From the NCBI GenBank assembly GCA_023230525.1, contig JALNXE010000001.1:39488-103487 (forward strand): a stretch of DNA of 64,000 nucleotides, read 5' to 3'. Positions 11,427 through 60,280 of the stretch are shown here, in pieces. The notes below the pieces were generated by a model, which saw only the letters and a program-made list of their open reading frames with translations, was not told where the DNA came from and made no database searches. The stretch's first letter is position 1. Each line of letters starts with the position of its first letter. The position numbers were made by a program, and so were the translations under genes. Origin of the DNA: Desulfobulbaceae bacterium. GTDB taxonomy: Bacteria; Desulfobacterota; Desulfobulbia; Desulfobulbales; SURF-16.

Positions 11427-11772
11427 ATGTTAATCTGCTTGTCAGTCCGGCGTTTGTAGTAGGGATAACCCCAACATTCGTGCACAATGAGGGGCCATCT
11501 GATTAGTCAGGTTGCGGAGCGAAGAGACCTCAAAAATCTCGTAGCGTAGTAACCCTTTCCGCTGATTTTATTTTTTTCTTTTTTTTGGGGAGCGGACTCC
11601 TTGCCGGCCATCATCAATTTCGCGTTTATGCTGTCGTCCATAATAAGCATGTTGCCGAATGGAACCTATTTCATTGAAGAAAAGAAGGGGAGATTAATGT
11701 AAGGTACGGTTATGAACTGATCAGGAACCTTGAAACCGTACCTTAGAAATCCTTGCATGAAATACGATTTTC

Positions 11773-11784
11773 TGTAATATTACA
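11773..11784. promoter_or_regulatory. Perfect 12-bp palindrome TGTAATATTACA about 105 nt upstream of parA (candidate par operator/centromere-like site)
   Basis: Read directly from the sequence. A second inverted repeat, AAGGTACGGTT(11701-11711)/AACCGTACCTT(11734-11744), lies just upstream. Confidence 0.3.
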
Positions 11785-11890
11785 AATATACAAAAACGTA
11801 AAATGGAAGTTCAGGTCGTTACGGCCAATACCGCCAGCTTAACGTACTTTGCAATCCGTTTTCTGAAGTGTCCCCTAAAAGGATGGCAAT

Positions 11891-12517
11891 ATGATTATTG
11901 GACTTTTGAACCAAAAAGGTGGCGTCGGCAAAACGACGCTCAGTGTAAACCTGGCGGCTTGCCTGGCCCGCACCGGGGCGCGTGTCCTGCTGATCGATGC
12001 CGACCCTCAAGGTAGCGCTCTTGATTGGGCAGCCGCCCGTGAAAGCGAACCGCTTTTTTCCGTTGTTGGTCTGCCCAGGCCGACCCTGCATAAAGAAATC
12101 AACCAGATTGGGTACGGCTACGACCATATAATAATCGACGGCCCTGCCCGAGTTACCGATCTGGCCCGGTCGGCTATCATGGCTGCCGATTTCGTACTGA
12201 TTCCGGTGCAGCCAAGCCCTTATGATATTTGGGCGGCTGATGAAATCCTGAAGCTCATCGCCGAAGCCTCTGTTTACAAAGACAATCTTAAATCCGCTTT
12301 TGTGGTTAATCGCAAAATTACAAATACGGCTATTGGACGGGATGTGATTGAGGCTCTTGCCGCCTATCCAATACCAGTTCTGATTGCAACCATAGCCCAA
12401 CGAGTAATTTTTGCTGAAGCAGCAGCCCAAGGCAAAGCTGTTTATGAAATCAAAGAAGGGCCTGCATCGGTCGAGATCGAGGCCGTCGCAGCCGAGTTGA
12501 TGGAGTTCGTAAAATGA
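11891..12517 (+). CDS. parA: ParA-family partition ATPase (small, type Ib-like)
   Basis: Deviant Walker A ([11 protein letters not shown]) in a 208-aa protein, followed by a small overlapping RHH gene. Confidence 0.88.
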
Positions 12518-40121: not shown

Positions 40122-41756
40122 CTATCTAATCGAGACGCACTCATCACCAACGCGTTGGTATCCGCTGTCACAAACCCATTTATGGCCGGTGTAATCGACA
40201 CTTGCGTTCGGGGGGACATAAAATTTCACACACTTATCACCTTCCGGGCGATAGCCACTGTCACAGACCCACTTGCGACCGGTGTAGTCAACACTAGCGT
40301 TTACAGGAACTTTGAATTTCACGCATTCGTTCTCCACCTGCCGATAACCGCTGTCACAAACCCATTTACGGCCGGTGTAATCGACGCTTGCGTTCGGGGG
40401 GACATAAAATTTCACACACTTATCACCTTCCGGGCGATAGCCACTGTCACAAACCCACTTGCGACCAGTGTAGTCAACACTAGCGTTTACAGGAACTTTG
40501 AATTTCACGCATTCGTTCTCCGCCTGCCGATAACCGCTGTCACAAACCCATTTACGGCCGGTGTAATCGACGCTTGCGTTCGGGGGGACATAAAATTTCA
40601 CACACTTATCACCTTCCGGGCGATAGCCACTGTCGCAAACCCAGTTTCGCCCTGTGTAATCAATGTGCGCGTTCGCAGGGATTCCACTCGACCTTCTTGT
40701 TTCCTGCACTGGCCTCGATTCAACTCTCGGAGGAGTCAGGCTAGATCGATGTTGCGGATTTGTCTGGCTTTGAGTTTTAGTTTGGGAAACGGGCGGTTTA
40801 TAAGCGGCTTTTGCTCTTCTAAGCGTACTCAATAAGTCTTCGCCAATCCAGCCATCCTGGGTGATGCCAGCGTCGCGCTGAAAAGCCTTCACCGCGTCGG
40901 CAGTCCGGCGACCATAATCGCCATCCACCGGTCCAGGGTCGTAGCCGAGATCGGTTAGGAGCTGTTGAGCTTCTTTGGTGTATTGGGAGCGGGGCTTCTT
41001 GGGAGCGCTACTCTTCGATACGCCTGGGGATACCGCTGGGTAGGAGCGGCTGCCCAACTGTCTGGCCTCTCGAATGGCCTCCGCGACGATTTGGGTTCGG
41101 TAGGATTCAACATCTCGTTCAGCTAGCGATCGGGAACCTTGGCGATGCTGATACCGCCCACAGCGGCTGTTGTAATCATTAACGATCCGGTTGAATTCAT
41201 CGACACCTTCATTTGTATCAATAATGTCTCTCATCGCCTCGATACGAATGCCTTCCCGGACGCACCAGCGAATCTCCGGCACGGAAAGCACATTGTTGGT
41301 ACCGACCGAAGGCTTTGTATATTGCAGTCCGACGCTTTGGGTCGCGCTTGGCGCTTGGACTGCCGGAGCGGGGCTGCTCTGCGGGTAGCTGTAGCTCTGA
41401 GACGACGATGGCGGATTGTATGAAGGTGTTTTGTTGCTTTGACTTCCATTGTTAATCAGCCAGATCACAAAAACAACCCCAATAATGCCAAGAATCCATT
41501 TACCCCCCGAGCCACTGCTGCTTTTGCCAGAGTTCACGGTTTCGATGGGTGGAGGAGAGTTTGTGGTTTTCTGCTCGGGTTCGGACGTGGCTGGTTCCCG
41601 TTGAGTCTGGAGCGGTTGCTTCGGGGTCGGGGGCTTAGCCTCCGCTTTTGGTTCGAGCTTTAAAGGCTCGTCGATGCCACTGAGCTCGGACGCCAAGTCT
41701 GAAAGCCCGGAGAATCCTTTTTTATCCTTATCGTTATCACCAGCCATGGGCATCAA
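40122..41756 (-). CDS. Membrane-anchored protein with peptidoglycan-binding domain (PG_binding_1-like) and six C-terminal Cys repeats
   Basis: It has an N-terminal cytoplasmic KKGFSGLSDLASELS motif and one TM (WILGIIGVVFVIWLI). These are followed by QQLLTDLGYDPGPVDGDYGRRTADAVKAFQRDAGITQDGWIG (PGBD-like) and then 6 x ~31-aa repeats NASVDYTGRKWVCDSGYR…C(V)KF. Confidence 0.7.
   Translation of the reverse strand: MMPMAGDNDKDKKGFSGLSDLASELSGIDEPLKLEPKAEAKPPTPKQPLQTQREPATSEPEQKTTNSPPPIETVNSGKSSSGSGGKWILGIIGVVFVIWLINNGSQSNKTPSYNPPSSSQSYSYPQSSPAPAVQAPSATQSVGLQYTKPSVGTNNVLSVPEIRWCVREGIRIEAMRDIIDTNEGVDEFNRIVNDYNSRCGRYQHRQGSRSLAERDVESYRTQIVAEAIREARQLGSRSYPAVSPGVSKSSAPKKPRSQYTKEAQQLLTDLGYDPGPVDGDYGRRTADAVKAFQRDAGITQDGWIGEDLLSTLRRAKAAYKPPVSQTKTQSQTNPQHRSSLTPPRVESRPVQETRRSSGIPANAHIDYTGRNWVCDSGYRPEGDKCVKFYVPPNASVDYTGRKWVCDSGYRQAENECVKFKVPVNASVDYTGRKWVCDSGYRPEGDKCVKFYVPPNASVDYTGRKWVCDSGYRQVENECVKFKVPVNASVDYTGRKWVCDSGYRPEGDKCVKFYVPPNASVDYTGHKWVCDSGYQRVGDECVSIR
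40125..40673. repeat. In-frame tandem coding repeat, 93-nt unit in a 186-nt super-unit (six copies)
   Basis: Successive 186-bp units are nearly identical at the nucleotide level, with only a few substitutions (e.g. cagaccc/caaaccc, ctccacctg/ctccgcctg). Confidence 0.9.
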
Positions 41757-41932
41757 CCCCTTCCGTTTCGCACATAAATTTCATGCCGAGCTTCCTCATA
41801 TGAACGTCAACCCCCAAGCGCCCAGGCCGCCAATGCCCATACAAAAAATAATCACCGGAGTATATCCAGAGCTTTTCTTCTTGGCGGGCAGCCCTGTATC
41901 CGGATGCCCGTGAGCCTGCCCCAGATCGCCGA

Positions 41933-42397
41933 TCATCTTGGCTGGCCGCTTACTCCCAACTGCCGACCCAAGATCTCGAACAACCTCCGCTTGACCACCT
42001 GTGGGCTTGTGTCGCCTTCATATTCACCGAGGTTCAATCGTGTCTCGCCGGTGAAGAGGCCAATCATCAGCGGCCCCATTTTGCTGCCACCCTCGGCTTG
42101 AAGGAGCTTGCCAGCTTCGCTGCCGAGCATTTTGGCCAGCATTCCAATATCGGCCTGCTCAAGGGGAAGAGTCATAATCGGCCGGTGGGATGGACCGTAA
42201 GGATTTCTGTCGATACGGTAAAAAACCGACATGGCGTAGTGGTAGGTCATCCCCTGATACTCGGCCTTCTTACCCTGAATTTCCATGGTGAAGTCAAGAA
42301 CGGTCTTCGGTTTCTTCTGGAAGTGAGGAAGAAATCTCCCCAGACCCAGGTCTCTCCGGCATGGACGCTCGACCATGGAGCAGGAAGAGTTGGTCAC
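41933..42397 (-). CDS. Hypothetical 154-aa protein (GTG start, 4-nt overlap with the upstream 49-aa ORF)
   Basis: The ORF is in operon context; no domain recognised. The start is GTG at 42397, overlapping the TGA of the small ORF (GTGA). Confidence 0.4.
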   Translation of the reverse strand: MTNSSCSMVERPCRRDLGLGRFLPHFQKKPKTVLDFTMEIQGKKAEYQGMTYHYAMSVFYRIDRNPYGPSHRPIMTLPLEQADIGMLAKMLGSEAGKLLQAEGGSKMGPLMIGLFTGETRLNLGEYEGDTSPQVVKRRLFEILGRQLGVSGQPR

Positions 42398-42543
42398 TTG
42401 GTCAGCTCCAGCAAGGCGAACAGCGGCTTTTGAGGTGCTGATGGGTGTAAGCTGGTTTGGCGTTGTGCCTGTGGGATAATCCGGGTGTCCGAGGTCAGAT
42501 CGGAGAGTCCAGAAAATCCGCGTTTGTTGTCTTTTTTATCCAT
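42394..42543 (-). CDS. 49-aa peptide MDKKDNKRGFSGLSDLTSDTRIIPQAQRQTSLHPSAPQKPLFALLELTK (below the ORF-track cutoff)
   Basis: Found by hand translation. A GAAGGGGA Shine-Dalgarno sits 6-7 nt upstream of the ATG at 42543. It shares the K(K/R)GFSGLSDL(A/T)S motif with the N-terminus of the 544-aa protein and is translationally coupled to the next gene. Confidence 0.4.
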   Translation of the reverse strand: MDKKDNKRGFSGLSDLTSDTRIIPQAQRQTSLHPSAPQKPLFALLELTK

Positions 42544-42583
42544 ATATCCCCTTCAAAATCCGCTATTACAGATTGCTCCTTGG

Positions 42584-44530
42584 CTACGAATCCCACCTCA
42601 ATGAGAAATGTTCATCTAATAAATGAAAAATCACATCCGTGTCGATTACGGTGCTGAATTGTGGAATCTTCGTAAGGGATACTTCTCGCTTTATTTTGTC
42701 GAGAATCCCAAAATCTTTCTTTCTCATCTCAACGTAGCCATACCCACGCAAAAATGAAGTTGATGACAGTCCGAAGTCACGCCCTTTGAACACGATTTTG
42801 TCACGCGGATAGAAGTAGCACTTATCATATTCGAAATAGCCATTTCTTTTTATTTGCGACTCATAAAACTCGACCCGGCGATCAAATGTAACATGAGATA
42901 AATATGAGTAGAACTCGACGACCGTCTTGATTTGTGCTGATTTGTCTTTGTTGAAGAAAAAGCCTTGCTCATCTACAGAGATCTTGACCTCTTGGCCTCC
43001 AGACATCGTAAGATAAATATTGGCCTGCTCAGTTTTTCCCGTTTCGATGAAGTTGGTCTTATGGGTTGTGACTGCTCGATAGAATCCAATATGACGAATA
43101 TCGTTGGTGCTATACGTCCTCCCCTTAAATGAAAATGTGTTGCCGTTTAGATTAAATTCTCTGAATTGAGAAAGGAGCTTGCTTCGGTTTGCGGCTATTT
43201 CTTGAAGGGCCTTGTCATCATTGGTAATGCGATCAGAAATTTCACCTGCATCCTCAAATACCCCAAGAAGAGCCTTTGTAAGCTGCTGAGCAAAATCGAG
43301 CTTGTCATGCTTGTTGAACATATGAATCGCCAAATCTCGAACGGTCCAAGCAGCGTGTTGGCTCGCATCATGCTCGGGATCAATTTCCCAATTCTTGACG
43401 AGCTGACAAAGCTGGTTAACTTTTTGCGATAAATATGAATCTGGCCGCCTACTATCTAAGTCAGCTTTTATCTGGGTAATGAATTCCTCGATTTTCGATA
43501 CTTCTGAATGAAGAACCCTTTGTTCCGCTATCTCGCCGAGCGCATCTGCATCCTCAGCGGTGCGTTCGGCAACCTTACCAACTTCCGCGAACACTTCCTG
43601 CAGCATGTTCGTGAGTTGTTGTGAGAAATCGAGCTTGTTATGCTTGTTGAACATATGAATCGCCAGGCCACGAACCAGACCTGCAACGCGGTCGCTCGCG
43701 TCGTGATCGAGCCCTCGACTCTTTGTGCTGACCTGAATCGGCTGGGCGACGGAATCCCAATTCTTAACAACCTGGATTAGCTGGTTCACCAGGGGGGCCA
43801 ATGTGGAATCGGGCCGTTCCGCATCCACGGCGGCCCGCAGTTTTTCCACGAGGGCTCTTATGTTCCCTTCTTCCTTGTCAAGGAACCCCTGTGCCTCTAC
43901 CTCATACGAATCAACAAGGTCGGCTATCAGAATAGGGCCGTGTTCCTCGCCATCGTCAGTCGCGGATTCGACGGCAACGGTAACTGCCTCCACGAGTTCT
44001 TTTGGGGAGAGGTTGTCAAGGGCCGACTTGATAACCTGGCGATAGTGTCTCCTCCGTTCTTGGATTTCAGCTTCTACGGCCGAGAGATCCGACACTTCCG
44101 GAAAACCGGAAACAACCCGTTCCTCGTTAATGATCGCGCTCAGCTCCTCGGGGTCGATATCTTCAAACGCCCAGGCGATCTCAAGAATCCATTCCGCAAC
44201 GTCATTGGCAATGTGATCAGGCAAACGAGCAAGGCCTGCCGCAAGCAGGTTCGCCCGAGCAATTGACGACAGTTTGTCGACAGCGAGCAAATCCGCTGGC
44301 GAGGTCTCGAGGAGCGACAACACCTCTCCGGCTCGTTTAGGTCCAATACCGGGCAGCCAAGCTACTTCAGCGGAGAGCCTTTTCCGGGGGTTGGTCAAAT
44401 CGGAACGCGCCTCTATGCAATCACTTGAGTCGAGCAGCAAGCTACGTTCGTCGGCCAATTCCATGATTCGCCGTCGGTTATCGCGGGGGCTGGCAGTCAG
44501 AATATGAAAAGGATTTTGTAATAGGTCCAT
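42584..44530 (-). CDS. 648-aa protein with a degenerate J-domain-like N-terminus, an internally duplicated helical module and a beta-rich C-terminal domain
   Basis: NPFHILTASPRDNRRRIMELADERSLL…NPRKRLSAEVAWL has J-domain helix I-II spacing but no HPD. An internal repeat is present (…VKNW…RGLAIHMFNKHNKLDFSQQLT… / …VKNW…RDLAIHMFNKHDKLDFAQQLT…). It lies between the AAA+ gene and the small ORF. Confidence 0.45.
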   Translation of the reverse strand: MDLLQNPFHILTASPRDNRRRIMELADERSLLLDSSDCIEARSDLTNPRKRLSAEVAWLPGIGPKRAGEVLSLLETSPADLLAVDKLSSIARANLLAAGLARLPDHIANDVAEWILEIAWAFEDIDPEELSAIINEERVVSGFPEVSDLSAVEAEIQERRRHYRQVIKSALDNLSPKELVEAVTVAVESATDDGEEHGPILIADLVDSYEVEAQGFLDKEEGNIRALVEKLRAAVDAERPDSTLAPLVNQLIQVVKNWDSVAQPIQVSTKSRGLDHDASDRVAGLVRGLAIHMFNKHNKLDFSQQLTNMLQEVFAEVGKVAERTAEDADALGEIAEQRVLHSEVSKIEEFITQIKADLDSRRPDSYLSQKVNQLCQLVKNWEIDPEHDASQHAAWTVRDLAIHMFNKHDKLDFAQQLTKALLGVFEDAGEISDRITNDDKALQEIAANRSKLLSQFREFNLNGNTFSFKGRTYSTNDIRHIGFYRAVTTHKTNFIETGKTEQANIYLTMSGGQEVKISVDEQGFFFNKDKSAQIKTVVEFYSYLSHVTFDRRVEFYESQIKRNGYFEYDKCYFYPRDKIVFKGRDFGLSSTSFLRGYGYVEMRKKDFGILDKIKREVSLTKIPQFSTVIDTDVIFHLLDEHFSLRWDS

Positions 44531-44542
44531 GCTCCCCTCCGG

Positions 44543-46012
44543 TTACTTGTCATCCCGGACGAATCCTATACGTCTGCTTTTTTTCTCTTGGTCTTTTGGA
44601 AGGCTGTTCAACGCTGCATCAATGCTCTCTTGATCGAGCTCTGTCTTACTGGCCTTGGCAGCGAGCCGTGCGGCCTCGCGTATGACAAAGGCCGAATCGG
44701 AGAGCGCCTTACCCGTGAGCGCATTGAGGATCTTGTCCACGTTAAGATCGTCTGCTTTCGGCAGCTTGCTCAAGAGTGAGTCCACCAGCGAAGCCACTTC
44801 TTCCCTCGACGGCATGCCAACCTCGATGATGTGGTCAAAACGGCCGCGCCGCAGAATCGCCGGATCGATCATTTCGATCAGGTTCGTCATGGCGATAATC
44901 AGCACCTTGTTCTTGATGGCTTCCGGAATCCGACGAAGAAACTCGGCTACCTCTTCGACGTGATGCAATCCGGACGAGCTCCCAGAGCGTCTATCCGACA
45001 GAAAAGATTCCATCTCGTCGATGACGATGACGGACGGAGCGCCATCAATCGCCTTGTCAAAAACCTCGGAGATCTTCTTGCTGGTTTCGTGAATGTAGGG
45101 GCTGCCGACACTGTTCGAATCAATCGAGTAGCTTGGCCAATCGATAAACTCGACAAGACGCTCCACAGCAAAGGTTTTGCCACAACCTGGCGGCCCATGC
45201 AGGACGATGGCGGAAGGAAAATCGATACCCAAGACTTGATATTTCTCGGCATTGAAGATGATGTCGATGACGTGTTCGTTGAAAAACTCCTCAAGCTGTG
45301 GTCGCCCTGGAAGTGTGAACACCTTGGCCTCGGCCGGTTCCTCGGATGATTGCGGCTGTTCAGGTTCGAAAGCCTCCTTAGCAATGGTGGTCTTTGCCTC
45401 GGTCTTGGGTTGAGAAGACGGCTTGCATTTAGCCAGTAGACCAGCATTTGCAGGCAAGGTAAATCCGGCAGCCTTTATAATTTCTGCCAGATCGCCAGCG
45501 GGCATCCAGCCAGTGAGTTTAGTCAAGCGCCGGAAGGATTCCGTTGATATGACGACCCCACCGGTGATCCAGGTTCCCAAGACAACCTCATCATCTACGT
45601 GAGGTGTCAGCGTCCAGGCCGGGAGCAGTCTGGAGTACTGTTCCACATAAACGGCATCGTGGAAGGAGGCATCCTCGGATAGTTTGCGAGACTCTTTGAG
45701 AGCGAAAGCAAAGGCCAGTGCATCGACCTTGCTTTCAGGGGATTTCCCATTTTCAACCGGAGTCAGGGTGTACTTTTTATGGCTGCTCAGACTCTGGAGT
45801 GCTTCAGCTCCGAACGAAACATCCCCGAACACGGATTCGTCAAGAAAACCGCATTCATTCCACTTCCTCGCCAGCTCCGGCAGTGTGAGCAGGATATTAT
45901 TTGAACCATTGGTATCGAAAATCTGCCACTCATCTCCTGAATAGAGAAGCGACCGGATTTTCGACCCGTCTGGCAATTCATACCCTTTAGGCAGCCATAA
46001 ATCCTTCGCCAT
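44543..46012 (-). CDS. Classic-clade AAA+ ATPase (Cdc48/FtsH-like single AAA module) with an unknown ~250-aa N-domain
   Basis: Walker A LHGPPGCGKT, Walker B SVIVIDEME and second region of homology TNLIEMIDPAILRRGRFD. Confidence 0.88.
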   Translation of the reverse strand: MAKDLWLPKGYELPDGSKIRSLLYSGDEWQIFDTNGSNNILLTLPELARKWNECGFLDESVFGDVSFGAEALQSLSSHKKYTLTPVENGKSPESKVDALAFAFALKESRKLSEDASFHDAVYVEQYSRLLPAWTLTPHVDDEVVLGTWITGGVVISTESFRRLTKLTGWMPAGDLAEIIKAAGFTLPANAGLLAKCKPSSQPKTEAKTTIAKEAFEPEQPQSSEEPAEAKVFTLPGRPQLEEFFNEHVIDIIFNAEKYQVLGIDFPSAIVLHGPPGCGKTFAVERLVEFIDWPSYSIDSNSVGSPYIHETSKKISEVFDKAIDGAPSVIVIDEMESFLSDRRSGSSSGLHHVEEVAEFLRRIPEAIKNKVLIIAMTNLIEMIDPAILRRGRFDHIIEVGMPSREEVASLVDSLLSKLPKADDLNVDKILNALTGKALSDSAFVIREAARLAAKASKTELDQESIDAALNSLPKDQEKKSRRIGFVRDDK

Positions 46013-46015
46013 AAA

Positions 46016-48511
46016 TCATCCCCTGATAATGTTGGCAACATCCATCAAATCATTTTCAGATCCTCTTCCAATCTTGATTGAATAGAGTTCACCAACAACA
46101 GCACGAAGCTTTTCAATATCATCAGTACGCATAAATTGCGCACCGAGCTTGGTAAGTTCCTGGAAACGGTGTTTGTCGGCAAAGAGATGAGGCGAGCTGG
46201 CCATCCACTTGAACCGATCGACCACAAACCAATCCTGCCGCCAGAGAATCTCCCAGTTCTTTCCTTTCAACTCATCAAGGTAGTGTTCGAAATTCTGGTT
46301 CGTTTCTCCAATACAACGTTGCGCCGTCTTCGCCAAGTTGTCGAAGGCCGACGATTCGGACGGGCGGGCATGCTGCCGAATATGTTCGTCGAAGAAGGTC
46401 ACCACACCATCGAGGTCAATCTGGCGAATCTCCTTGAGGTGTTCCTTTCGAACCTGGGCAAGAAGTCGCCGTGCCTCGAGCACCTTCTCCATGGCCTCCT
46501 GGGACTTCTCGGTCTCTTTTTCTTCTGGATCGAGCGAGACGGCGGATTCAAGTTTCTGCCGTGCTTGCTCCAGTTTTGGGTTGTCCACTACCTCATTGAT
46601 CTCATCGATGCGATTCAGCGTTCTTTCGCCTTCCTCGACGACCATGACGGCGGCGGCGGTGTAGTCGAGCTGTCCCTCCTGACGGGAATAGAAGTTCTTC
46701 CCTGAGTGGAAGGTCCCGCCGATGCAGGGCACGGATACTTCGATGATAATATTACCGGAGTCCAGGATTTCGTATTCGCATTCAAGATCGGCTCCGGCGT
46801 GAATCACGCCATCATCGAAATCGGAGCCGGAAATTTTCAAGACGCCGATGGGGCGGTTGTCGGTAATGGGGTCTTCGATCTCACCCTCCCAAAGTTTCAG
46901 ATTGAGTGAGCCAGACGCGCCCGCTTTGAGAGACTCAGCCGCCTTAAATATCTTTTTGCCCTTCTTCGGCAGTGAATCGCCCGAACGGATCAGATAGTCA
47001 AGTACGGGGCGGCCGCCGAGTTTCTCCAAGACCTCGATGCCAACTGAGTGAGAGGCCGGGATGGCATCCACTGTGGCGGCGGTTCGGGTAATGACAATCT
47101 TGTCCTGTTCCAGGGCAATGGGGCCACCCACGGAATCGAACATAAACACCTTGAAGGTGTTGTCGCCAGTTTTTGTCAGGGTAACGTCGATGGTTGCGCC
47201 ATGCTTGAGAGGAAGGCGGCCGGAGGTCCAGCCGGTGTCGACGCTATCGATCTGAAACTCAGAGCCAACCGCAGCTTGGCCTGCCAATTGGACGGCGATC
47301 TTTGCTTTAACATCCGGTGTGCGGGCGATGTAATTGAAAGACAGCGCCAGCCCGCCTCCGGAAGAAATTTGCCCACGGGTATTCTTGCGCGACCGGTTCT
47401 GGGAACTCCAGTCAATGGATTCCGCGAAGAGGCTTGCGCCTTCCGCCACGGCCGTCATGGGATTTACATCGGTGCTTCCCGGAATACCCAGCTCAAAGGC
47501 GACCTTGTCGCGCAGGGGTTTGTAATTGGTCGGGCCACCGACGAACACAATACGTTCCAGGTCATGCGGAGAAAGACCGGCCTTATTGAGTGTCTCTCGA
47601 GCAGACTCGATTGATTCGCCTACGCGCTCGGAGATCAGCTTGTCATAGGTGGCTCGCTGCAAAGGAATATCGAGATAGATTTCATTGCCGCTAAGATCCC
47701 GAACGCGGGCCTCGGTTTCCGATAGGCTGATTACGGAATCTTCACGGGCCGAGAGTTCAATCTTAGCGCGCTCGGTGGCCCAAGCGGACAGCCGAATGAG
47801 CGACTTGAAACTCGGATTCACGGAAAAGTCTTCAGGGAGGTCGAAGTTTTCCAGCAGCCAAGGTCGCACAACGTTATCGACGAGGACGCGGTCAAAATCC
47901 CTGCCGCCACACATGGCAATACCACCGTGGGCGAGGAGGTTGACCCGCCCACCAATGCTTTCGGCAATGGCGATATCGAGTGTGCCGCCACCTAGGTCAT
48001 AGATCAGAAACATGCCGTCGGTATTGCGGGCACGCATGACGCTCATGACCGCCGCGACCGGTTCCTGCATAAGCGCAATCTTGCCGAGACCAGCCATGCT
48101 GGCGGCCTGCATGGTGGCGTCCTTCTGCATCTGGTTAAACGCCGCAGGAACGGTTATGACGGTTCCTGTATCGGGATCGTTTCTGATTTCCTCTGGTAAG
48201 TAGCCGAACAGAACCTTTAGAACCTCTGCGGAGCATTCTTCGGGGGTCTTTGTGAGGTTCATCGCAGAAAGCTGAACTGGCGTGCTCGTCCCCATGAGCC
48301 GCTTGAACAGCATCGCCGCGTTATCTGGGCTGTGCGGAGCCGAATCGTAGGCCCGCTTGCCCACGTATTTGTTGCCGCGTCGGTCGATATAGATCACCGA
48401 TGGCGTCACATCATTCTGTTCAGGACTCTTCCAGGTTCGGGTTTCGGAACCGTCATAGGAACAGATAGCGCTGTTAGTTGTACCCAGGTCAATGCCTATG
48501 AAATTTTTCAT
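46016..48511 (-). CDS. Non-canonical Hsp70-family ATPase (831 aa, extended C-terminus)
   Basis: Hsp70 NBD motifs IGIDLGTTNSA, TVPAAFN, IYDLGGGTLDIA, VFVGGPTNYKPLR. The beta-rich substrate-binding-like region is followed by a ~230-aa helical tail that is longer than in DnaK. Confidence 0.9.
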   Translation of the reverse strand: MKNFIGIDLGTTNSAICSYDGSETRTWKSPEQNDVTPSVIYIDRRGNKYVGKRAYDSAPHSPDNAAMLFKRLMGTSTPVQLSAMNLTKTPEECSAEVLKVLFGYLPEEIRNDPDTGTVITVPAAFNQMQKDATMQAASMAGLGKIALMQEPVAAVMSVMRARNTDGMFLIYDLGGGTLDIAIAESIGGRVNLLAHGGIAMCGGRDFDRVLVDNVVRPWLLENFDLPEDFSVNPSFKSLIRLSAWATERAKIELSAREDSVISLSETEARVRDLSGNEIYLDIPLQRATYDKLISERVGESIESARETLNKAGLSPHDLERIVFVGGPTNYKPLRDKVAFELGIPGSTDVNPMTAVAEGASLFAESIDWSSQNRSRKNTRGQISSGGGLALSFNYIARTPDVKAKIAVQLAGQAAVGSEFQIDSVDTGWTSGRLPLKHGATIDVTLTKTGDNTFKVFMFDSVGGPIALEQDKIVITRTAATVDAIPASHSVGIEVLEKLGGRPVLDYLIRSGDSLPKKGKKIFKAAESLKAGASGSLNLKLWEGEIEDPITDNRPIGVLKISGSDFDDGVIHAGADLECEYEILDSGNIIIEVSVPCIGGTFHSGKNFYSRQEGQLDYTAAAVMVVEEGERTLNRIDEINEVVDNPKLEQARQKLESAVSLDPEEKETEKSQEAMEKVLEARRLLAQVRKEHLKEIRQIDLDGVVTFFDEHIRQHARPSESSAFDNLAKTAQRCIGETNQNFEHYLDELKGKNWEILWRQDWFVVDRFKWMASSPHLFADKHRFQELTKLGAQFMRTDDIEKLRAVVGELYSIKIGRGSENDLMDVANIIRG

Positions 48512-48513
48512 AG

Positions 48514-48888
48514 TTACAGCTTCCTCAAAGTGACGGTTCCTGTCTTAACCAAACCTTCTTTCCCCATAATGATCGGCTCCAGCATCTGATCGACTATCAA
48601 GGCATCTTTCGCATCGAACTCTTCGATATTCAGGGGGGTAGCGGCCATGCCGGGGTCGAAGGGATGCCCCTCGACGTTGACGATTCGCAAACCCGTTTGT
48701 TCCAGAGCCTCTTCGACCTTTTTTATGAACCAACGAAACTGGCTCTTGTACCGGTTCTGTTCTCCGGCATCGAGTTTTAGCAGCAGGCGATCAAACACCC
48801 GGCCAAAACGCCAGGACTCAACCGCCATACTGATCACCGCATCCCGCATAGCCTCGGGGTGAGTTATGGTTTGCTCGGAATCCAACAT
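48514..48888 (-). CDS. GrpE-like nucleotide-exchange factor (C-terminal domain only, 124 aa)
   Basis: ALEQTGLRIVNVEGHPFDPGMAATPLNIEE…IVDQMLEPIIMGKEGLVKTGTVTLRK parallels the GrpE beta-domain pattern (G-x-FDP-x-H/M-x-A … RpA-V-V-V). It ends 2 nt before the Hsp70 start. Confidence 0.65.
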   Translation of the reverse strand: MLDSEQTITHPEAMRDAVISMAVESWRFGRVFDRLLLKLDAGEQNRYKSQFRWFIKKVEEALEQTGLRIVNVEGHPFDPGMAATPLNIEEFDAKDALIVDQMLEPIIMGKEGLVKTGTVTLRKL

Positions 48889-49570: not shown

Positions 49571-50437
49571 TTATCTTTTCCGCTTACTCTTATGAAAAGT
49601 TGGTGGTTCCCAGGGCCATTCATCATCTGTATTATTCAAGCTTTCTTCATCCTCATCTTCACAATCCCCTAAGCCGTCCTCATCATATAATAGGGTTAAA
49701 ACCTGGCCATAAGAGTTAATAGGCAAGGCCCATTCAAGGATTTCTGAATGACTTTTTAACTTTTTACCGGCAACCCAGATATTTGCCTTTACTGAGTCAA
49801 ACAGATCATCTGGAATATCGCCTTTCAAAGCAGCAAATGTCTGGGTATCAGAAGGAACATCGCGGTTGTCCATATCAATATAAAGATTGAAGTTTTTAGC
49901 TGCACGAAACCAAGCTAACTTATTCTTTTCGCATACCAATAGTGCGCAGCTCTCTTCAGTCAATTCAATATATCTAATCACCGTAGCTAATTTAGAGGTT
50001 TGACTCATCTCTGACAACTTCATTATATTGTCCCAGCCAGGGTCATGTTCTTCGACAAGTTTCAGGAAAACACTTCTTGGCATCAAGAGCTCTGCCGCAA
50101 ATTCATTAGCCCTTAGCTCTATTGGTGAGTTGCTTTTAGAATTTGTCCCAATGGAGCTTCGTGGGCAAAAAAATGAGTTTGAATCAAAAGTATCCAGGCA
50201 GAAATGCCCCAGCTCATGGGCTCCTGTAAAATTTTTTCTCCCGATTTCGTTTATTGTTGAATTGACGCAAATCATTCCATTGAGAGCATGATCAAGAAAT
50301 AAAATTCCATCAATCTCCTTCAGGGATTTTTCAATGTAAAATATGCCCAACTTCTCACATATATTACGTGGGATGATAGGTAGCGAATCCAGACCTAATT
50401 CATCTAATAATTTGACTGCCTCATTTCTCGGGTCCAT
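49571..50437 (-). CDS. capP: ImmA/IrrE-family zinc metallopeptidase, CapP-like (CBASS-associated protease)
   Basis: HEXXH motif (GAHELGHF). The preferred start is MDPRNEAV at 50437, 7 nt after the HTH gene stop. It is paired with an XRE HTH and divergent from a CBASS operon. Confidence 0.75.
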   Translation of the reverse strand: MDPRNEAVKLLDELGLDSLPIIPRNICEKLGIFYIEKSLKEIDGILFLDHALNGMICVNSTINEIGRKNFTGAHELGHFCLDTFDSNSFFCPRSSIGTNSKSNSPIELRANEFAAELLMPRSVFLKLVEEHDPGWDNIMKLSEMSQTSKLATVIRYIELTEESCALLVCEKNKLAWFRAAKNFNLYIDMDNRDVPSDTQTFAALKGDIPDDLFDSVKANIWVAGKKLKSHSEILEWALPINSYGQVLTLLYDEDGLGDCEDEDEESLNNTDDEWPWEPPTFHKSKRKR

Positions 50438-50444
50438 AAACGGC

Positions 50445-50795
50445 TCATTTCTTTTTTGACTTAAAAAAATCGACCATTTTTTCAATCGTTTCTTTGTCTT
50501 CAGAATTCAATGATTGGAATCCCCGGAAAAAAGTTCTGATATCTTGATCATGTAATAAAGCGCCTAACTCAGACTCATCTGTTTTACCCAACAGATAATC
50601 AATGGATACATTTAAAACAGATGCGATTCTCTGCAGGACCGGTATCGTTGGTGTTCTTGTCCCTTTCTCGATTTGCGAAATAGCCGCCGGGGTTACACCA
50701 GATTTTCCCGCGAGCTGGGCCTGGTTAAGGTTCTTCCCTTCTCGGGCAAGAGTGATACGCTGCCGCAATATCTCCTTATTAAATTCTTTCATCAT
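50445..50795 (-). CDS. capH: XRE-family HTH repressor, CapH-like
   Basis: LNQAQLAGKSGVTPAAISQIEKGTRTPT is a Cro/CI HTH. 116 aa, upstream of the metallopeptidase and divergent from the CD-NTase operon. Confidence 0.75.
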   Translation of the reverse strand: MMKEFNKEILRQRITLAREGKNLNQAQLAGKSGVTPAAISQIEKGTRTPTIPVLQRIASVLNVSIDYLLGKTDESELGALLHDQDIRTFFRGFQSLNSEDKETIEKMVDFFKSKKK

Positions 50796-51356: not shown

Positions 51357-52361
51357 ATGCCTGATCTACAAAAGCAGTTTGTTAAGTTCCATGACAACAT
51401 CAAACTCGGCAACTTTGACGAAAACCAGACTCTTCGAGAGAAACGGGATACACTCCTTAAAGATTTAAAATCGAGAATTGAAGAAAATGCTCCATCATTT
51501 GAGAGTTTCGGTCAAGGTAGTTATGCTATGAACACTGGCATTGTGCCAAAAGACGGGAATTATGATATTGACGTTGGAATCATTTTCGACTGCTCTCGTG
51601 AGAGGTATCCAGATCCGGTTGATTTAAAAAAGATAGTGAGAAATGCGCTTAGCAATGGAAATCGAACCGTAGTTATCAGGAGGCCCTGTGTCACTGTAAC
51701 CTACATGAAAAATGGGAAAGTTGATTATCATGTGGATTTAGCGATTTATGTAAAACGGAATGAAGATAATCTTCTGGATCTCGCCATCGGGAAAGAATTC
51801 TCAGAAGAAGAAAATAAAGTTTGGCAGAAATCTGACCCCAAGGGGTTGATAGATAAAATTAACAACAGCTTTGTTAATAGCGATGACCAGGCGCAAATGC
51901 GCAGATGTATACGATATTTAAAAAAGTGGCGTGATCACAACCTCCATTCTGTTAACTCTGGAAAACCATTCAGCATCGCCCTCACATGTTCTGCCTATAA
52001 TTGGTTTCAACCGAGCAAAGATATTTTTTCTGGAAAATATCAAGACTTAGATGCATTGCTTGATTTGGTTAAAACCAAACTGAGCCATTTTGACAGTCTA
52101 GGATGGTTGACTATTTCCCTTCCTGTAGAACCATATGAAGACCTTAACAAAGTAATGACAGTTACTCAGATGAAAACATATAAGGAAAAATTCGCAAATC
52201 TTCGGGATGCTCTAATTGCAGCAAAGAATGAAGATCTCGAAGATGAAGTATGTAAGCTGTTACGTATACAGTTTGGTGATGATTTCCCAGTTCCGGAAAA
52301 GAAAGATACCGCAAAAAAAGCTGCTGTAGCTGGTTATGCACCGGCTGGAGGGAGCGCATAA
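51357..52361 (+). CDS. CD-NTase (cGAS/DncV-like nucleotidyltransferase, SMODS) of a type II CBASS
   Basis: Pol-beta NTase motif GQGSYAMNTGI…DYDIDVGIIF in a 334-aa protein, followed by Cap2/Cap3/SAVED genes. The C-terminus is …YAPAGGSA. Confidence 0.8.
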   Translation: MPDLQKQFVKFHDNIKLGNFDENQTLREKRDTLLKDLKSRIEENAPSFESFGQGSYAMNTGIVPKDGNYDIDVGIIFDCSRERYPDPVDLKKIVRNALSNGNRTVVIRRPCVTVTYMKNGKVDYHVDLAIYVKRNEDNLLDLAIGKEFSEEENKVWQKSDPKGLIDKINNSFVNSDDQAQMRRCIRYLKKWRDHNLHSVNSGKPFSIALTCSAYNWFQPSKDIFSGKYQDLDALLDLVKTKLSHFDSLGWLTISLPVEPYEDLNKVMTVTQMKTYKEKFANLRDALIAAKNEDLEDEVCKLLRIQFGDDFPVPEKKDTAKKAAVAGYAPAGGSA

Positions 52362-54111
52362 CGTGGAGGGTTTTGATTTCAAAAACTCTCTCTCAGCACA
52401 TCCCAATGTCACTTCCCTTAAAGAAATAAGTCTCAATGATATTGCGACGCGGGCTGTGTTTATTAAGGATAAGCTTGCAAAAGCTTTTATTGCCATTGTT
52501 CAAGTTGGGCCATTAGAGTATCAACTCTTCATCGGCGAGCCTAAAGGGTTTCCGGGGAAATTACCTTGGATTTTTTTCTTCAATCCAGAGCTACATGATT
52601 TCCATAACCATGTAAATTACAATGGTGAAATATGTTACACTGTTCAAAGTGATGGCATGTTCATTAATGTCAATCAGCCAGGGGCTGTGTTACATCAAGC
52701 ATTAAGTCAAGTTATTGAGATTCTTTCTGGCAGTGCAGACCGAAACTTATCAGAGCTTCATGAAGAGTTTGAAGGGTATTGGCATTCATTACCAGGCATC
52801 TTCGAGGCTCGATGTTTTTTTACCCCTACCCAAAATATTGATCAGATTACTGCTCTTTGTAATCCTGTATCAAAGCAAAATTTCACTCCCCGTATTTTAT
52901 TTAAAGAACCTCTCCCAGAAGGTTACGGCTATAATTATAGGCTGAAATCCCAACAGTCCAGAAAAGCATGGCATATACCGCTTGAAAAAAAAATATTACC
53001 TCCCAACCCTGATGCAGGATTAACCCCATTTTATGTCCGAAATTTATTGGATTCTGCCTCAGAATCACATAAAATCCAATTCCTTAAGTCTCAAGAGAAA
53101 AAAAAGAAAAAAGGGAAAAAACAAACTACAAGACAATGTGATATTTTGCTTTTTTCTCAAATGAGGCCGTCAGGTGCAATGTCTCTTTTTGGGGTCGTAG
53201 TAACAGGTACTTCAAAAACACCGTTTTTCTTGAGTTCAGAAGATAAAGGATGGGAATTAATCCCTTTTTCAATACAAAGACACAATCTTGAATATATTCT
53301 TGAACGTGGTGGAGCCCAGACATCATTACAGAAAAGAACTGTAGCGATATTTGGGTGTGGTGCTGTTGGATCGAGGATTGTAGAGCAGCTTGCTTTGTCA
53401 GGAATAGGGAAGTTAATTATTTTTGATAGTGATGATCTGAGTGAAGATAATATTTATCGGCATGTTCTCGGTGGGAAATATATTGATGAAAACAAAGCTG
53501 GAGCCATGGCTAAGTATTTAAAAGAACGCCTACCATATATAAGCGTTGTCCCTAAACCTATAAAAAGTGACCAGTGGTTGCAGAAAAAGGAATTGGAAGG
53601 TGTAGATATAATTGTGGATGCCACTGCTGATTTCACATCCATGCGAGCAATAAACCAAAATATGATTCAGGATTCTCTCTCTGTTCCAATCGTTTATTGT
53701 TGGTTAGAACCTTGCAGCATTGGGGGGCATTCTCTTTTGGTAGATGGAATTGCAGAAGGTTGCCTAGAATGTTTATTTGACAATACCGAGTTTGGTCCGT
53801 TTCTACGATGTGCCTTCCTGGAACCATACCAAAATTTAACAAAAGATTTGACAGGCTGCGGTGGAGTTTTCACCCCATTTTCATCTCTCGATGCCATAAA
53901 AACTGCCACATTATCTACTGAATTAGTTATAGAATACCTTCTCAAAAAACAAACCACCTCTTATAGCTTTTGGGTTGGGAATGACGATATTGCCAAGAAG
54001 GAAGGATTAAAAACAACTGAATGGTATAAAAAAGCCGCCAATAAAAATAGTTCAGAGATTGCAAAGAGATTTCGTCAAAAGCATTGTCCTGCCTGTGGAG
54101 GACAAATTTAA
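52336..54111 (+). CDS. cap2: Cap2 (E2-like + E1/ThiF-like fusion)
   Basis: Contains an N-terminal UBC-like region (HVNYNGEICYTV) and a ThiF/E1 Rossmann fold (VAIFGCGAVGSRIVEQLALSGIGKLIIFDSDDL). A C-terminal CPACGG zinc motif is also present. The exact start is uncertain. Confidence 0.8.
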   Translation: MHRLEGAHNVEGFDFKNSLSAHPNVTSLKEISLNDIATRAVFIKDKLAKAFIAIVQVGPLEYQLFIGEPKGFPGKLPWIFFFNPELHDFHNHVNYNGEICYTVQSDGMFINVNQPGAVLHQALSQVIEILSGSADRNLSELHEEFEGYWHSLPGIFEARCFFTPTQNIDQITALCNPVSKQNFTPRILFKEPLPEGYGYNYRLKSQQSRKAWHIPLEKKILPPNPDAGLTPFYVRNLLDSASESHKIQFLKSQEKKKKKGKKQTTRQCDILLFSQMRPSGAMSLFGVVVTGTSKTPFFLSSEDKGWELIPFSIQRHNLEYILERGGAQTSLQKRTVAIFGCGAVGSRIVEQLALSGIGKLIIFDSDDLSEDNIYRHVLGGKYIDENKAGAMAKYLKERLPYISVVPKPIKSDQWLQKKELEGVDIIVDATADFTSMRAINQNMIQDSLSVPIVYCWLEPCSIGGHSLLVDGIAEGCLECLFDNTEFGPFLRCAFLEPYQNLTKDLTGCGGVFTPFSSLDAIKTATLSTELVIEYLLKKQTTSYSFWVGNDDIAKKEGLKTTEWYKKAANKNSSEIAKRFRQKHCPACGGQI

Positions 54112-54593
54112 TGCGTATGGCTTATTCGCTGGAGCATGATCGGAAGTTTATTATTACTGAGCCTGTTGTTGATCTCCTTATGAATTACCGCCAAACAGAC
54201 AAATGGCAAAAAGAAGCTGGAGGTTTGCTCATAGGAAGACATCTCTTAGAAGAGGATCATCTTGTTGTAGATCGGATCACTGAGCCTACATGGTGGGATA
54301 AACGGTTACGGACATTTTTTTTTCGTTCAAACAGGCATAATCGGATTTTATATAAGACGTGGAATGATTCGAATAAAACCCTAACTCTATTGGGACTTTG
54401 GCATACCCATCCTGAACCTATTCCAACCCCTTCAGTAGTAGATTATAAAGATTGGGAAAACACTCTTCTTCAAGGGGAGTATTTTGGTGATTTTCTTGTC
54501 TTTATGATAGTCGGCACTCAAAAAATACGGATATGGCGCGGCGATAAACATGCCCGATTTTTAGAAATGAATGAGATATTGAAGAATGAATAA
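54111..54593 (+). CDS. cap3: Cap3 (JAB/JAMM-family isopeptidase)
   Basis: JAMM motif LWHTHPEPIPTPSVVD plus an upstream EAGGLLIG. The start is taken at the TAATG overlap with the cap2 stop; the ORF track starts at 54084. Confidence 0.8.
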   Translation: MRMAYSLEHDRKFIITEPVVDLLMNYRQTDKWQKEAGGLLIGRHLLEEDHLVVDRITEPTWWDKRLRTFFFRSNRHNRILYKTWNDSNKTLTLLGLWHTHPEPIPTPSVVDYKDWENTLLQGEYFGDFLVFMIVGTQKIRIWRGDKHARFLEMNEILKNE

Positions 54594-55662
54594 AAAAGTT
54601 AATGTGTTGAATTTGCTTTGGCAGTTTTGGAATCAGTGGCTCAAATATAGAAATGTTGATCCCATTATAGGTTTTGCAAGGCTATTGGTAGGTCTTGGAG
54701 TAGGGCTCATTGCTCCTGGGGGAGTATGGTGGCTTATGGTTGCCCTGGAAATCAGACCTGAAAAACTACCGGTCTCACTTACATTTAGCTTTGGGCCTGA
54801 AACCGTTACATATACTGGATTGATTTTGTTGGCGATTGGTGTCTCTCTGGGGATTTGGGGAGTCCATAGGGTAAGAAAGACGCGATCCTGTTGTTTAATT
54901 TACATGCGAGGTATGCCAGGTATGCATGATCAGCCTCCTTTTGTTGATTTGCCGCCTAGGTATCGATTCGGAGAGGTTACGCATTTTTTACTAGATTCCC
55001 ATAATCGAAGTCCGCAGGATGTACTTCAGGATATCGAAATGTTAAGAAAAATGCTTGATGACAAAATATTATCGATGAATATCGAAGCACCCATTGTCAT
55101 ATTTGCAGGTTTAGCACCTGTGCCCCTCTTGTATGCCACAGGGGTATGCTTGTTGAATCGCAGCAATCTTAAGGTAATGGATTACAATCGGTTCGAGCAA
55201 AAATGGCACATGCTAGACGATCTTGATGATGGTGACCATTTAAAGATATTATACCCTAAATGTGTAGTAGGAACTGAAATAGCAATTGCAATTTCTTTTA
55301 CTCTTTTGATTAGCAAATCACAGCTCCCACCAAATTTCAGGGATAAAACTATTTGGATTTATTTGAATAAATCAGAACCAAAGGCTGATGCTCTTAGCAG
55401 CGAAGAAAAACTTAAAAGAGTGTTGCGAGAGTTGCATGACATGATCCGCAACTTACGGAGTCGCAAAGGCTACGAAGATGTGGGGAAAATTCATTTATTT
55501 GTCGCTGCACAATCTTCAACCGTATTTAAGTTAGGCACGGAATTTCAAGCCAATGTTTATCCTGATATTCGTATATATCATTTTAATGGAGGTGAAGGGA
55601 AATATACGTGGGGTGTTTCAGTAAAGAATAACAAAATTGAGGTAGTTGAAGCATCCAGCTGA
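54586..55662 (+). CDS. Transmembrane-SAVED CBASS effector (Cap14-like by my recollection of the nomenclature)
   Basis: It has N-terminal hydrophobic helices (LLVGLGVGLIAPGGVWWLMVAL, YTGLILLAIGVSLGIWGV). The C-terminal SAVED-like features are IVIFAGLAPVPLLYATG and IHLFVAAQSSTVFKLG…IRIYHF. Confidence 0.65.
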   Translation: MNKKVNVLNLLWQFWNQWLKYRNVDPIIGFARLLVGLGVGLIAPGGVWWLMVALEIRPEKLPVSLTFSFGPETVTYTGLILLAIGVSLGIWGVHRVRKTRSCCLIYMRGMPGMHDQPPFVDLPPRYRFGEVTHFLLDSHNRSPQDVLQDIEMLRKMLDDKILSMNIEAPIVIFAGLAPVPLLYATGVCLLNRSNLKVMDYNRFEQKWHMLDDLDDGDHLKILYPKCVVGTEIAIAISFTLLISKSQLPPNFRDKTIWIYLNKSEPKADALSSEEKLKRVLRELHDMIRNLRSRKGYEDVGKIHLFVAAQSSTVFKLGTEFQANVYPDIRIYHFNGGEGKYTWGVSVKNNKIEVVEASS

Positions 55663-58624: not shown

Positions 58625-58651
58625 GCGACTGCCCTCAAAGAGTTCTGCCGA

Positions 58652-58759
58652 TCAAGTATCAGTCAAGTAGGAAAACAGAGGATATCATATTGATATCGCA
58701 GACATCATCTATTCTTCTTGATGCCTGGGTCTCGGTCCCAGTCAAGTACCCATCAAGTA
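58652..58759. promoter_or_regulatory. Two pairs of 11-bp-spaced TCAAGTA boxes flanking the palindrome GATATCA-N3-TGATATC (candidate operator/promoter module)
   Basis: TCAAGTA at 58652, 58663, 58742 and 58753; the palindrome is at 58681-58697. The same architecture is conserved in the repeat copy at 10770-10876. Confidence 0.35.
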
Positions 58760-60267: not shown

Positions 60268-60280
60268 AGTGTCACTCCTA

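Follow-up and report, generated by a model that had tools for sequence, protein, structure and literature searches.

Why does a region dense in defence genes encode an Hsp70 side by side with a AAA+ ATPase and an envelope protein, and what could such an assembly do there? We address this question for a gene cluster on the minus strand (48888-40122) of a 64,000-nt stretch from a Desulfobulbaceae bacterium (GCA_023230525.1, contig JALNXE010000001.1, positions 39,488-103,487, forward strand); this whole stretch is referred to below as the window. The cluster spans seven co-directional open reading frames (ORFs) separated by 2, 3, 12, 40, -4 and 176 nt. From its 5' end it encodes a GrpE-like protein, an Hsp70, a AAA+ ATPase, a 648-aa protein that we call the adaptor (P648), the remains of a ~250-aa tail-anchored protein (P250) and a peptidoglycan-binding envelope protein (PGB). 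Comparison with relatives identifies it as a real, widespread, mobile and previously undescribed Hsp70/AAA+ cassette.

With each species represented by a single genome, a scan yielded 117 loci, distributed over Pseudomonadota, Desulfobacterota, Acidobacteriota, Chloroflexota, Bacteroidota, Cyanobacteria, Myxococcota, Nitrospirota, Verrucomicrobiota, Caldisericota and several candidate phyla. Across more than 15 phyla, ~80 genomes share the gene order, Hsp70 identities being 51-92%, and identities of 70-90% often cross phylum borders. In comparison with three relatives, the five intact genes of the window have dN/dS values of 0.03-0.18 (0.03-0.06 for the Hsp70), indicative of strong purifying selection. 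The recurrent gene order and these low ratios together argue that the cassette is not a chance arrangement.

The order GrpE-like protein, Hsp70, AAA+ is kept wherever the available sequence suffices, and the GrpE-like gene always lies directly upstream of the Hsp70 gene. The AAA+ gene is followed either by the adaptor, in some loci P250, and PGB, or by PGB and then the adaptor. The Hsp70 is always accompanied by the GrpE-like protein and P648, the AAA+ is present in almost all loci, and one to three membrane proteins complete the set. A distant variant on an Aminobacter plasmid encodes the adaptor, the GrpE-like protein and the Hsp70 only. This variant points to these three as the ancestral unit, and the minimal triad provides independent support for the GrpE-like protein and P648 as putative co-chaperones. 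As a side observation, in the clade with the order AAA+, PGB, adaptor, a conserved ~214-aa protein without a Pfam match follows the adaptor (L043, L046, L054, L061, L066, L067, L075, L084, L085 and L088; ~11620-12300). A further five small co-oriented genes come next on the Aeromonas plasmid, one of them annotated as RDD-family (L089, 10647-14454). The ~214-aa protein and the small Aeromonas genes may be extra components of that variant.

The carriers of the cassette are equally varied. In V. cholerae it lies on an SXT-like integrative conjugative element (ICE), adjoining traF, in E. coli on an island with a tyrosine-recombinase trio, and in Aeromonas on a Tn7-like transposon of an IncP plasmid. 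The element in the window itself is conjugative-plasmid-like, with TrfA and F-type Tra genes. A further carrier is a ~13-kb integrative mobilisable element (IME) in which a five-gene cassette is the sole cargo (L120-L129, e.g., L120 5467-18555). This IME consists of an integrase, AlpA, DUF5338, a NikA-like gene, a relaxase, the cassette and an opposite-strand YhcG/DUF1016 nuclease-like gene. It occupies several chromosomal insertion sites and occurs on hundreds of metagenome contigs; in its lineage an identical GrpE-like protein is encoded on 339 contigs. Relatives are present on only 12 of 72,556 plasmids, and searches of 50,697 phage genomes and of IMG/VR yielded no copy of the cassette. The initial annotation had proposed a mobile Hsp70 cassette, distinct from a housekeeping locus and joined to a Cdc48-type AAA+ and an envelope protein, and the carriers of the relatives bear this out.

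What kind of machine do these genes encode? The Hsp70 nucleotide-binding domain (NBD) has the actin fold with phosphate-1, phosphate-2 and adenosine motifs (Pfam PF00012, residues 5-363, E 2e-53), and DnaK is its best solved-structure match (E 1.9e-52). A profile built from 58 family members and aligned with E. coli DnaK using hhalign (probability 100%) pairs residues 1-586 with DnaK 1-482. Within this alignment, residues 476-586 fall on DnaK 389-482, the β part of the substrate-binding domain (SBDβ). The interdomain linker DVLLLD is replaced by an insert of ~100 aa (372-475), the aligned position reading TAATVDAIP. The layout is thus NBD (1-363), insert (372-475), SBDβ (476-586) and a long C-terminal tail. 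The tail had been noted at the outset as an extended helical one, but the canonical SBDβ that precedes it had been overlooked. The NCBIfam DnaK model scores 205 bits (cutoff 648). Judged by these profiles, the cassette protein is a genuine peptide-binding Hsp70, and more than an NBD with a helical tail.

The protein encoded upstream of it was originally described as resembling the C-terminal domain of GrpE. The Pfam GrpE family (PF01025) matches it below threshold (E 0.008, 16.3 bits; cutoff 25.8). Of 51 diverse homologues, 23 have GrpE as their best-matching Pfam family, again always sub-threshold (best E 7.9e-4). In hhalign, the family aligned with a small GrpE profile with a score of 34.3 (P 1.3e-4, probability 53%), and 40 column-shuffled controls reached at most 25.8; the alignment places residues 30-101 on approximately residues 100-175 of E. 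coli GrpE. The GrpE profile consisted of the real E. coli sequence and four sequences entered by hand. The GrpE and J-domain templates used here are both small and partly entered by hand, and shuffled, reversed and crossed controls were run and all beaten. Comparisons with a single E. coli GrpE or DnaJ sequence were not significant, and profile searches of the PDB with the GrpE-like protein did not retrieve GrpE. The AlphaFold2 (AF2) model (mean predicted local distance difference test score, pLDDT, 64.5) has helices at 11-36 and 41-64 followed by three strands, the β part being uncertain. This secondary structure, two long helices and a small β domain, is compatible with the four-helix-bundle/β-domain half of GrpE. 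The long N-terminal dimerisation helix by which GrpE contacts the Hsp70 NBD is absent from the 124-aa protein. The signal is weak but above the controls, and lends modest support to a remote relationship with GrpE; the original description holds to that extent, without the long helix and without a family match above threshold.

P648 begins with a J-like region (1-60) and a weak helix-hairpin-helix (HhH)-like motif (LPGIGPKRA, 59-72). A conserved helical core extends to ~340 and includes the invariant motif WDxVAQPIQVSxKSRGLDH. Two helical repeat modules follow, and then a variable α/β C-terminal domain (465-648). No family match was obtained in Pfam, PADLOC or NCBIfam. The AF2 model (pLDDT 82.7) is mostly helical with an α/β C-terminal domain, and a fold search with the full-length model returned only generic, non-significant solenoids, which is uninformative on the 60-aa J-like region.

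The first ~60 residues, which read NPFxILGAT.RDDRRRIxELAEE..L..D....A...LTNPRKRL.AE.AWLPG, belong to a stretch of ~70 aa that had been said to look like a J-domain lacking the His-Pro-Asp (HPD) tripeptide. Aligned with nine J-domains in hhalign, this N-terminus scores 25.9 (P 3.1e-4, probability 39%; shuffles at most 16.4) over J positions 6-75, with a deletion of ~12 residues at the HPD site. The helices modelled by AF2 at 7-10, 19-29, 35-46 and 48-57 are compatible with a J fold. Membership in the J-domain family fails because HPD, its defining feature, is absent. Calling this region "J-like without HPD" is therefore reasonable, though unproven, and the part of the earlier interpretation that stands is the resemblance above controls.

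Homologues of P648 are numerous: 1,743 in a 90%-clustered database and, in a profile search of 1.84 billion representatives, 2,161 clusters at 50% identity (1,642 at E<=1e-10). Behind a constant core (1 to ~340), the C-termini of the relatives vary. They have 0-2 helical repeat modules (three in one relative) and end in a β-rich domain of either of two types, a membrane anchor, a fused P250, PG_binding_1 with BamE, a UvrD-like helicase or ankyrin repeats.

The AAA+ protein has a single AAA module (PF00004, residues 269-399, E 1e-27) whose nearest solved structures are VAT, p97 and Cdc48 (E 2.5e-48). Its motifs are intact, including Walker A (GPPGCGKT), Walker B (VIVIDEME), sensor-1 (MTN) and the Arg finger in the second region of homology (DPAILRRGRFD), and an aromatic pore-loop (PYIH) occupies the position of KYYG in VAT. 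The tandem D1 and D2 modules and the double-psi-barrel N-domain of Cdc48/p97 proper were not found in it, and TIGR01243 scores 99 bits (cutoff 803). A profile of the ~250-aa N-domain has no match in the PDB, so that the original reading, a classic AAA module behind an N-domain of no known kind, agrees with the analysis. The motifs cited in that reading for both ATPases (IGIDLGTTNS, DLGGGTLD and VGGPTNYKPLR in the Hsp70, and Walker A, Walker B and the Arg-finger region in the AAA+) all occur in the ORFs.

The membrane proteins of the cassette share a cytosolic N-terminal tag, K/R-G-F-S/A-G-L-S/D-S/D-L/M-x-S-D. It recurs with conserved sequence in 49 loci that extend to the most distant clades, sometimes in two genes of a locus. 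In the window it heads both PGB and the P250 pseudogene. PGB consists of the tag (KKGFSGLSDLASE), one transmembrane (TM) segment (82-100), a PG_binding_1 domain (260-312) and a C-terminal array of 31-aa repeats with two Cys each, which Pfam finds to be EGF_MSP1_1-like. At the DNA level the repeats form family D1, in which a 186-nt unit occurs 5 times, spaced by 93 nt. The PGB gene differs in length among relatives, its homologues encoding 464 to 620 aa. A repeat protein anchored in membrane and peptidoglycan had been predicted here, and the single TM segment, the PG_binding_1 domain and the Cys-rich repeats confirm it. P250 consists of the tag (KRGFSGLSDLTSD), a middle domain without an assigned family and a C-terminal glycine-zipper TM segment, the tail anchor, at residues 226-244 of the intact L001 homologue. 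In two adaptor-P250 fusions that we aligned (P0044 and P0054), the adaptor core stands in for P250's own N-terminus and the tag is absent. Because the fusions lack it, the tag may normally bring envelope proteins to the adaptor and the rest of the machine.

In the window the cassette is less complete than in its close relatives (Table 1). The ORFs and spacings given in the initial annotation are all present, but the 49-aa (42543-42394) and 154-aa (42397-41933) products that it listed as unknowns, which have no Pfam match, are fragments of one pseudogene. Together with a previously unlisted 46-aa ORF (41936-41796), they are collinear pieces of a ~250-aa gene, and in every close relative a single intact gene of this length lies between the genes for the 648-aa and the peptidoglycan-binding proteins. 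Protein and DNA alignments to intact homologues locate one TGG>TGA nonsense change and two 1-nt deletions. The window cassette is accordingly one of six genes, one a pseudogene, and the true gap before the PGB gene is 39 nt. A gene for an HTH_73 regulator (79 aa), which lies just upstream of the GrpE-like gene in close relatives, is missing. DNA similarity to relatives extends only from the start codon of the GrpE-like gene (48893) to the stop of PGB (40128), and no near-identical DNA was found in plasmids or complete E. coli genomes. A scan for promoters and terminators gave scores no better than shuffled sequence, and Rfam has no match across the whole window.

Table 1. Positions of the cassette genes, their neighbours and a repeated non-coding element in the window
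Feature	Position	Strand	Basis
GrpE-like protein, 124 aa, putative truncated nucleotide-exchange factor	48514-48888	-	ORF and remote GrpE similarity
Atypical Hsp70, 831 aa	46016-48511	-	PF00012 E 2e-53
Single-module classic-clade AAA+ (Cdc48/VAT-like), 489 aa	44543-46012	-	PF00004 E 1e-27
Adaptor P648, 648 aa	42584-44530	-	0 Pfam, PADLOC, NCBIfam family matches
P250 pseudogene (~250-aa tail-anchored protein when intact)	41796-42543	-	Alignment to intact homologues
PGB, 544-aa bitopic envelope protein	40122-41756	-	PG_binding_1 E 7e-16, TM prediction
Tandem 93-nt (31-aa) repeats inside PGB gene	40135-40692	-	Repeat search
McrB, 862 aa	37461-40049		Mrr_N 454-538, AAA_5 GTPase module
XRE/M78 pair	49571-50795	-
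Type II CBASS operon	51357-55662	+
DISARM-like block	55919-63142	-
~200-nt element, first copy	49424-49229	-
~200-nt element, second copy	36090-35904	-

The neighbourhood is that of a defence island, and elsewhere, too, anti-phage genes are usually found next to the cassette. An Mrr_N-McrB/McrC pair lies immediately downstream, McrB starting 72 nt after the cassette; this McrB has the canonical signature motif NxxD (MNIADRS). Ahead of its AAA_5 GTPase module it has, besides Mrr_N, an additional N-terminal region of ~450 aa without an assigned function. Upstream, an XRE helix-turn-helix (HTH) gene and an M78/IrrE-like peptidase gene are divergent from a type II cyclic-oligonucleotide-based antiphage signalling system (CBASS) that encodes a CD-NTase, an E1/E2 Cap2-like protein, a JAB Cap3-like protein and a SAVED effector. 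The XRE/M78 pair probably belongs to the CBASS and not to the Hsp70 cassette, because its layout fits CapH/CapP-type regulators. The placement between McrBC and CBASS was thus correctly recognised from the start. Further out lie a type I restriction-modification system and the DISARM-like block, which adjoins the CBASS and encodes a PLD-SNF2 helicase fusion (901 aa), a Schlafen AlbA_2/HATPase_c_4 protein (538 aa) and a DUF1156 methyltransferase (953 aa).

A Hachiman pair follows in the closest clade of the cassette. In six relatives there (L007, L009, L014, L020, L029 and L031) the HamA gene of a Hachiman system starts 4-8 nt past the PGB stop, and this spacing and the shared orientation suggest that HamA is co-transcribed with the cassette. 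HamA/HamB extend over 8899-12868 in L007, 14036-17996 in L009 and 13913-17894 in L014. In L024 Hachiman follows after one extra gene, and L010 and L011 retain HamA remnants. Other flanks, annotated as aggregated counts, contain type I, type IV and Mrr restriction genes, PDC-S02, PDC-S20, PDC-S21, PDC-S68 and HEC-05.

Does the cassette correspond to any system already named? With PADLOC-DB v2.0, five of the seven ORF products have no match, the Hsp70 matches only PDC-M61B (E 0.014) and the AAA+ only generic IetA/TRIP13 models. Full-text literature searches found no description of the cassette, nor any bacterial defence system with experimental validation that is based on a complete Hsp70 cycle. 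The statement that it matches no named defence system can therefore be upheld. Like DnaK-DnaJ-GrpE, the cassette combines an Hsp70 that has an NBD and SBDβ with a remotely GrpE-like protein and a partner whose N-terminus resembles a J-domain. It differs in the linker insert, the lack of the long GrpE helix and of HPD, and its sub-threshold family scores, and it adds a AAA+ and tagged envelope proteins and is carried by mobile elements. It is no housekeeping locus.

Specialised Hsp70s with dedicated partners and a client motif are known from HscA/HscB-IscU (LPPVK) and HscC/DjlC. The logic of HscA/HscB may be shared, with the GFSGLSDL tag as the candidate client peptide, but NCBIfam HscA scores are far below cutoff, and partners, clients and genomic context differ. 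Precedents for a threading AAA+ are the Hsp70-ClpB/Hsp104 bi-chaperone and the extraction of membrane proteins by Cdc48 and Msp1. By analogy, the cassette would pair an Hsp70 with a hexameric threading AAA+ that acts on likely membrane-anchored substrates with exposed cytosolic termini. In contrast to these systems, its AAA+ has one Cdc48-like module behind an N-domain of unrelated kind. In Zorya, ZorB-type peptidoglycan binding anchors an inner-membrane protein. The cassette is likewise a defence-island system with an inner-membrane protein that carries a periplasmic peptidoglycan-binding domain (PGB), but it lacks a MotAB-like stator and ZorCD-type effectors and has no PADLOC Zorya match.

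IetAS and its AAA+, IetA, were reportedly described by Gao and colleagues in 2020. We rejected this assignment, as the similarity covers the AAA core only (PADLOC IetA 2.6e-27; NCBIfam IteA 84 bits, cutoff 510) and the cassette has no IetS protease gene. CoCoNuT type III systems combine CnuD, an Hsp70-like protein with a degenerate Walker A and HEAT repeats, with McrBC homologues whose McrB has the motif NxD (Bell et al. 2024, PMC11090510). The cassette similarly places an Hsp70-family gene near McrBC in a defence context, but it is usually found without McrBC. CoCoNuT was rejected for the window on the NxxD motif of its McrB and the intact ATPase motifs of its Hsp70. In the GTPase-centric predicted conflict systems of GAP1-N2, Hsp70, GrpE and DnaJ-FNIII are proposed to act as an NTP-driven thresholding device (Kaur et al. 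2020, PMC7159879). These systems also join an Hsp70 to GrpE-like and J-like partners, but their DnaJ domains are bona fide and their main hosts are Actinobacteria and Firmicutes (PMC7159879), whereas the cassette has a AAA+ instead of the GTPase, no HPD and a broad phyletic spread. A 2025 preprint describes DnaK-like domains fused to EACC1-protease defence modules, an architecture unlike that of the cassette and another sign that Hsp70 folds are recruited to immunity.

Taken together, the defence-gene neighbours in the window and in relatives associate the cassette with immunity. The most likely reading, at about even odds, is a conflict or defence system, directed against phages or other mobile genetic elements, at the cell envelope. 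The sensor-effector at the envelope that the initial annotation had hypothesised is plausible though unproven. The chance that the cassette stands for a defence system of a new class is substantial. A bolder form of this proposal, which we put forward tentatively, makes it the founding Hsp70-powered immune system. The machine would read the tag on envelope proteins and arm or disarm them upon entry of phage or foreign DNA, and the adaptor C-termini would be interchangeable sensors.

The following sequence of events could underlie such a system. The J-like N-terminus of P648 would dock on the Hsp70, which the GrpE-like protein would reset and recycle. The tag would address PGB and the glycine-zipper protein P250 to the adaptor, to the substrate-binding domain of the Hsp70 or to the AAA+. 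ATP-driven remodelling or extraction would then keep the envelope proteins inactive or switch them on. A signal that the variable C-terminus of the adaptor or the periplasmic peptidoglycan-binding repeat protein detects could act as the trigger. The outcome would be either damage to the envelope or the membrane (abortive infection) or blocked entry of DNA. That tag-addressed remodelling is the specific mechanism is somewhat doubtful.

Several observations weigh against the defence reading or its mechanism. The defence role is suggested by association with neighbouring genes, and the cassette has no recognisable nuclease, protease or NADase effector. Apart from the generic IetA-like match to the AAA+, the cassette is not modelled in PADLOC, and housekeeping genes (PurL, an aminotransferase, MlaE) flank some loci. 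At the site of the HPD tripeptide, P648 reads ERSLLLDS, in which only D34 is near-invariant across 58 homologues, and Pfam DnaJ (PF00226) matches none of their N-termini (0/58). Foldseek did not retrieve GrpE with the low-confidence model of the GrpE-like protein (pLDDT 64.5), and binding of the tag to the adaptor is suggested by the fusion proteins only. In addition, the window copy is partly decayed and the cassette probably impaired there, because the glycine-zipper gene P250 is a pseudogene and the HTH_73 regulator is missing.

Four other explanations have to be considered. The tagged membrane proteins could be latent toxins held by the Hsp70 and AAA+, in which case loss of the element or titration of the chaperone would kill the cell and so stabilise the element, as in an addiction module of the toxin-antitoxin-chaperone (TAC) type. 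Chaperone-dependent toxin-antitoxin systems such as TAC are a known precedent, and mobile elements always carry or adjoin the cassette, which makes up the entire cargo of the small IME. P250 has a glycine-zipper tail anchor, and its copy in the window has been inactivated, as might befall a toxic gene. We nevertheless consider this unlikely: P250 occurs in the closest clade only, while the remaining cassette is far wider spread, and variable sensor-like C-termini such as the helicase and ankyrin fusions are unexpected for a simple addiction module. Addiction and defence are compatible, as many abortive-infection systems are toxin-antitoxin-like.

The composition of the machine, a genuine Hsp70 with SBDβ, a protein resembling a nucleotide-exchange factor, an unfoldase-type AAA+ and a peptidoglycan-binding partner, would also suit a mobile module for proteostasis or envelope stress. 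Akin to the transmissible locus of stress tolerance, the Hsp70 and AAA+ would serve as disaggregase or in quality control for survival of heat, oxidative or envelope stress, or would fold or insert envelope proteins of the element. DnaK derivatives are called functionally unexplored in a 2026 review. The J-like domain lacks HPD, however, and no small heat-shock protein, ClpB or protease partners are encoded. The sporadic distribution, near-identical copies across phyla, variable adaptor C-termini and tight juxtaposition with known defence genes also make a proteostasis function quite unlikely.

Given that the cassette lies beside the relaxase and NikA in the IME and beside traF in the ICE, and that it includes a peptidoglycan-binding envelope protein, it might act in the life cycle of its carrier, in DNA transfer, in establishment or in exclusion at the envelope, and not in host defence. 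Its presence on the Tn7-like transposon and the recombinase-trio island, which have no transfer genes, and at chromosomal sites between housekeeping genes renders this improbable. It is very improbable that the cassette is an accessory or regulatory front end of an adjacent nucleic-acid-targeting system (McrBC here, Hachiman elsewhere), like CnuD in CoCoNuT, which pairs Hsp70-like proteins with McrBC (PMC11090510): the close spacing to McrB and HamA, the weak HhH motif and the helicase-fusion form of the adaptor fit such a role, but most loci have no adjoining McrBC or Hachiman, the IME carries the cassette alone, and in the window neither the McrB motif nor the intact Hsp70 ATPase follows the CoCoNuT pattern.

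Should the cassette prove defensive, control of envelope effectors by a chaperone or unfoldase via a peptide address tag would be a mechanistic class new to immunity, and bacterial immunity would be tied to Hsp70/Cdc48 biology known from eukaryotes. If it is not, it would still provide a tractable model of an HPD-less J-like adaptor and a minimal GrpE that drive a specialised Hsp70. In both cases it is abundant, nearly identical across distant phyla and repeatedly acquired by different kinds of mobile element.

A non-coding element of ~200 nt was also detected in the window. Its two co-oriented copies, ~80% identical, bracket the Hsp70 cassette and McrBC. The invariant AATTTGAAACAAAATAGCGGA opens the element, and an inverted repeat (TGCAATC...GATTGCA) lies within it. 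Neither Rfam nor the plasmid database has a match, and covariation in RNAalifold is weak. The exact 21-mer occurs in 26 metagenome contigs (L094-L119), and nhmmer often finds it in arrays, with co-oriented copies 1.5-4.6 kb apart. The genes past it are diverse and often defence-like, including TIR_2, NB-ARC/NACHT with LRR, Mrr_cat, cytidine deaminase, SEFIR, VWA and radical SAM. Defence cassettes may share the element as a promoter or leader, or it may mark the junctions in a cassette array, much like integron attC sites.

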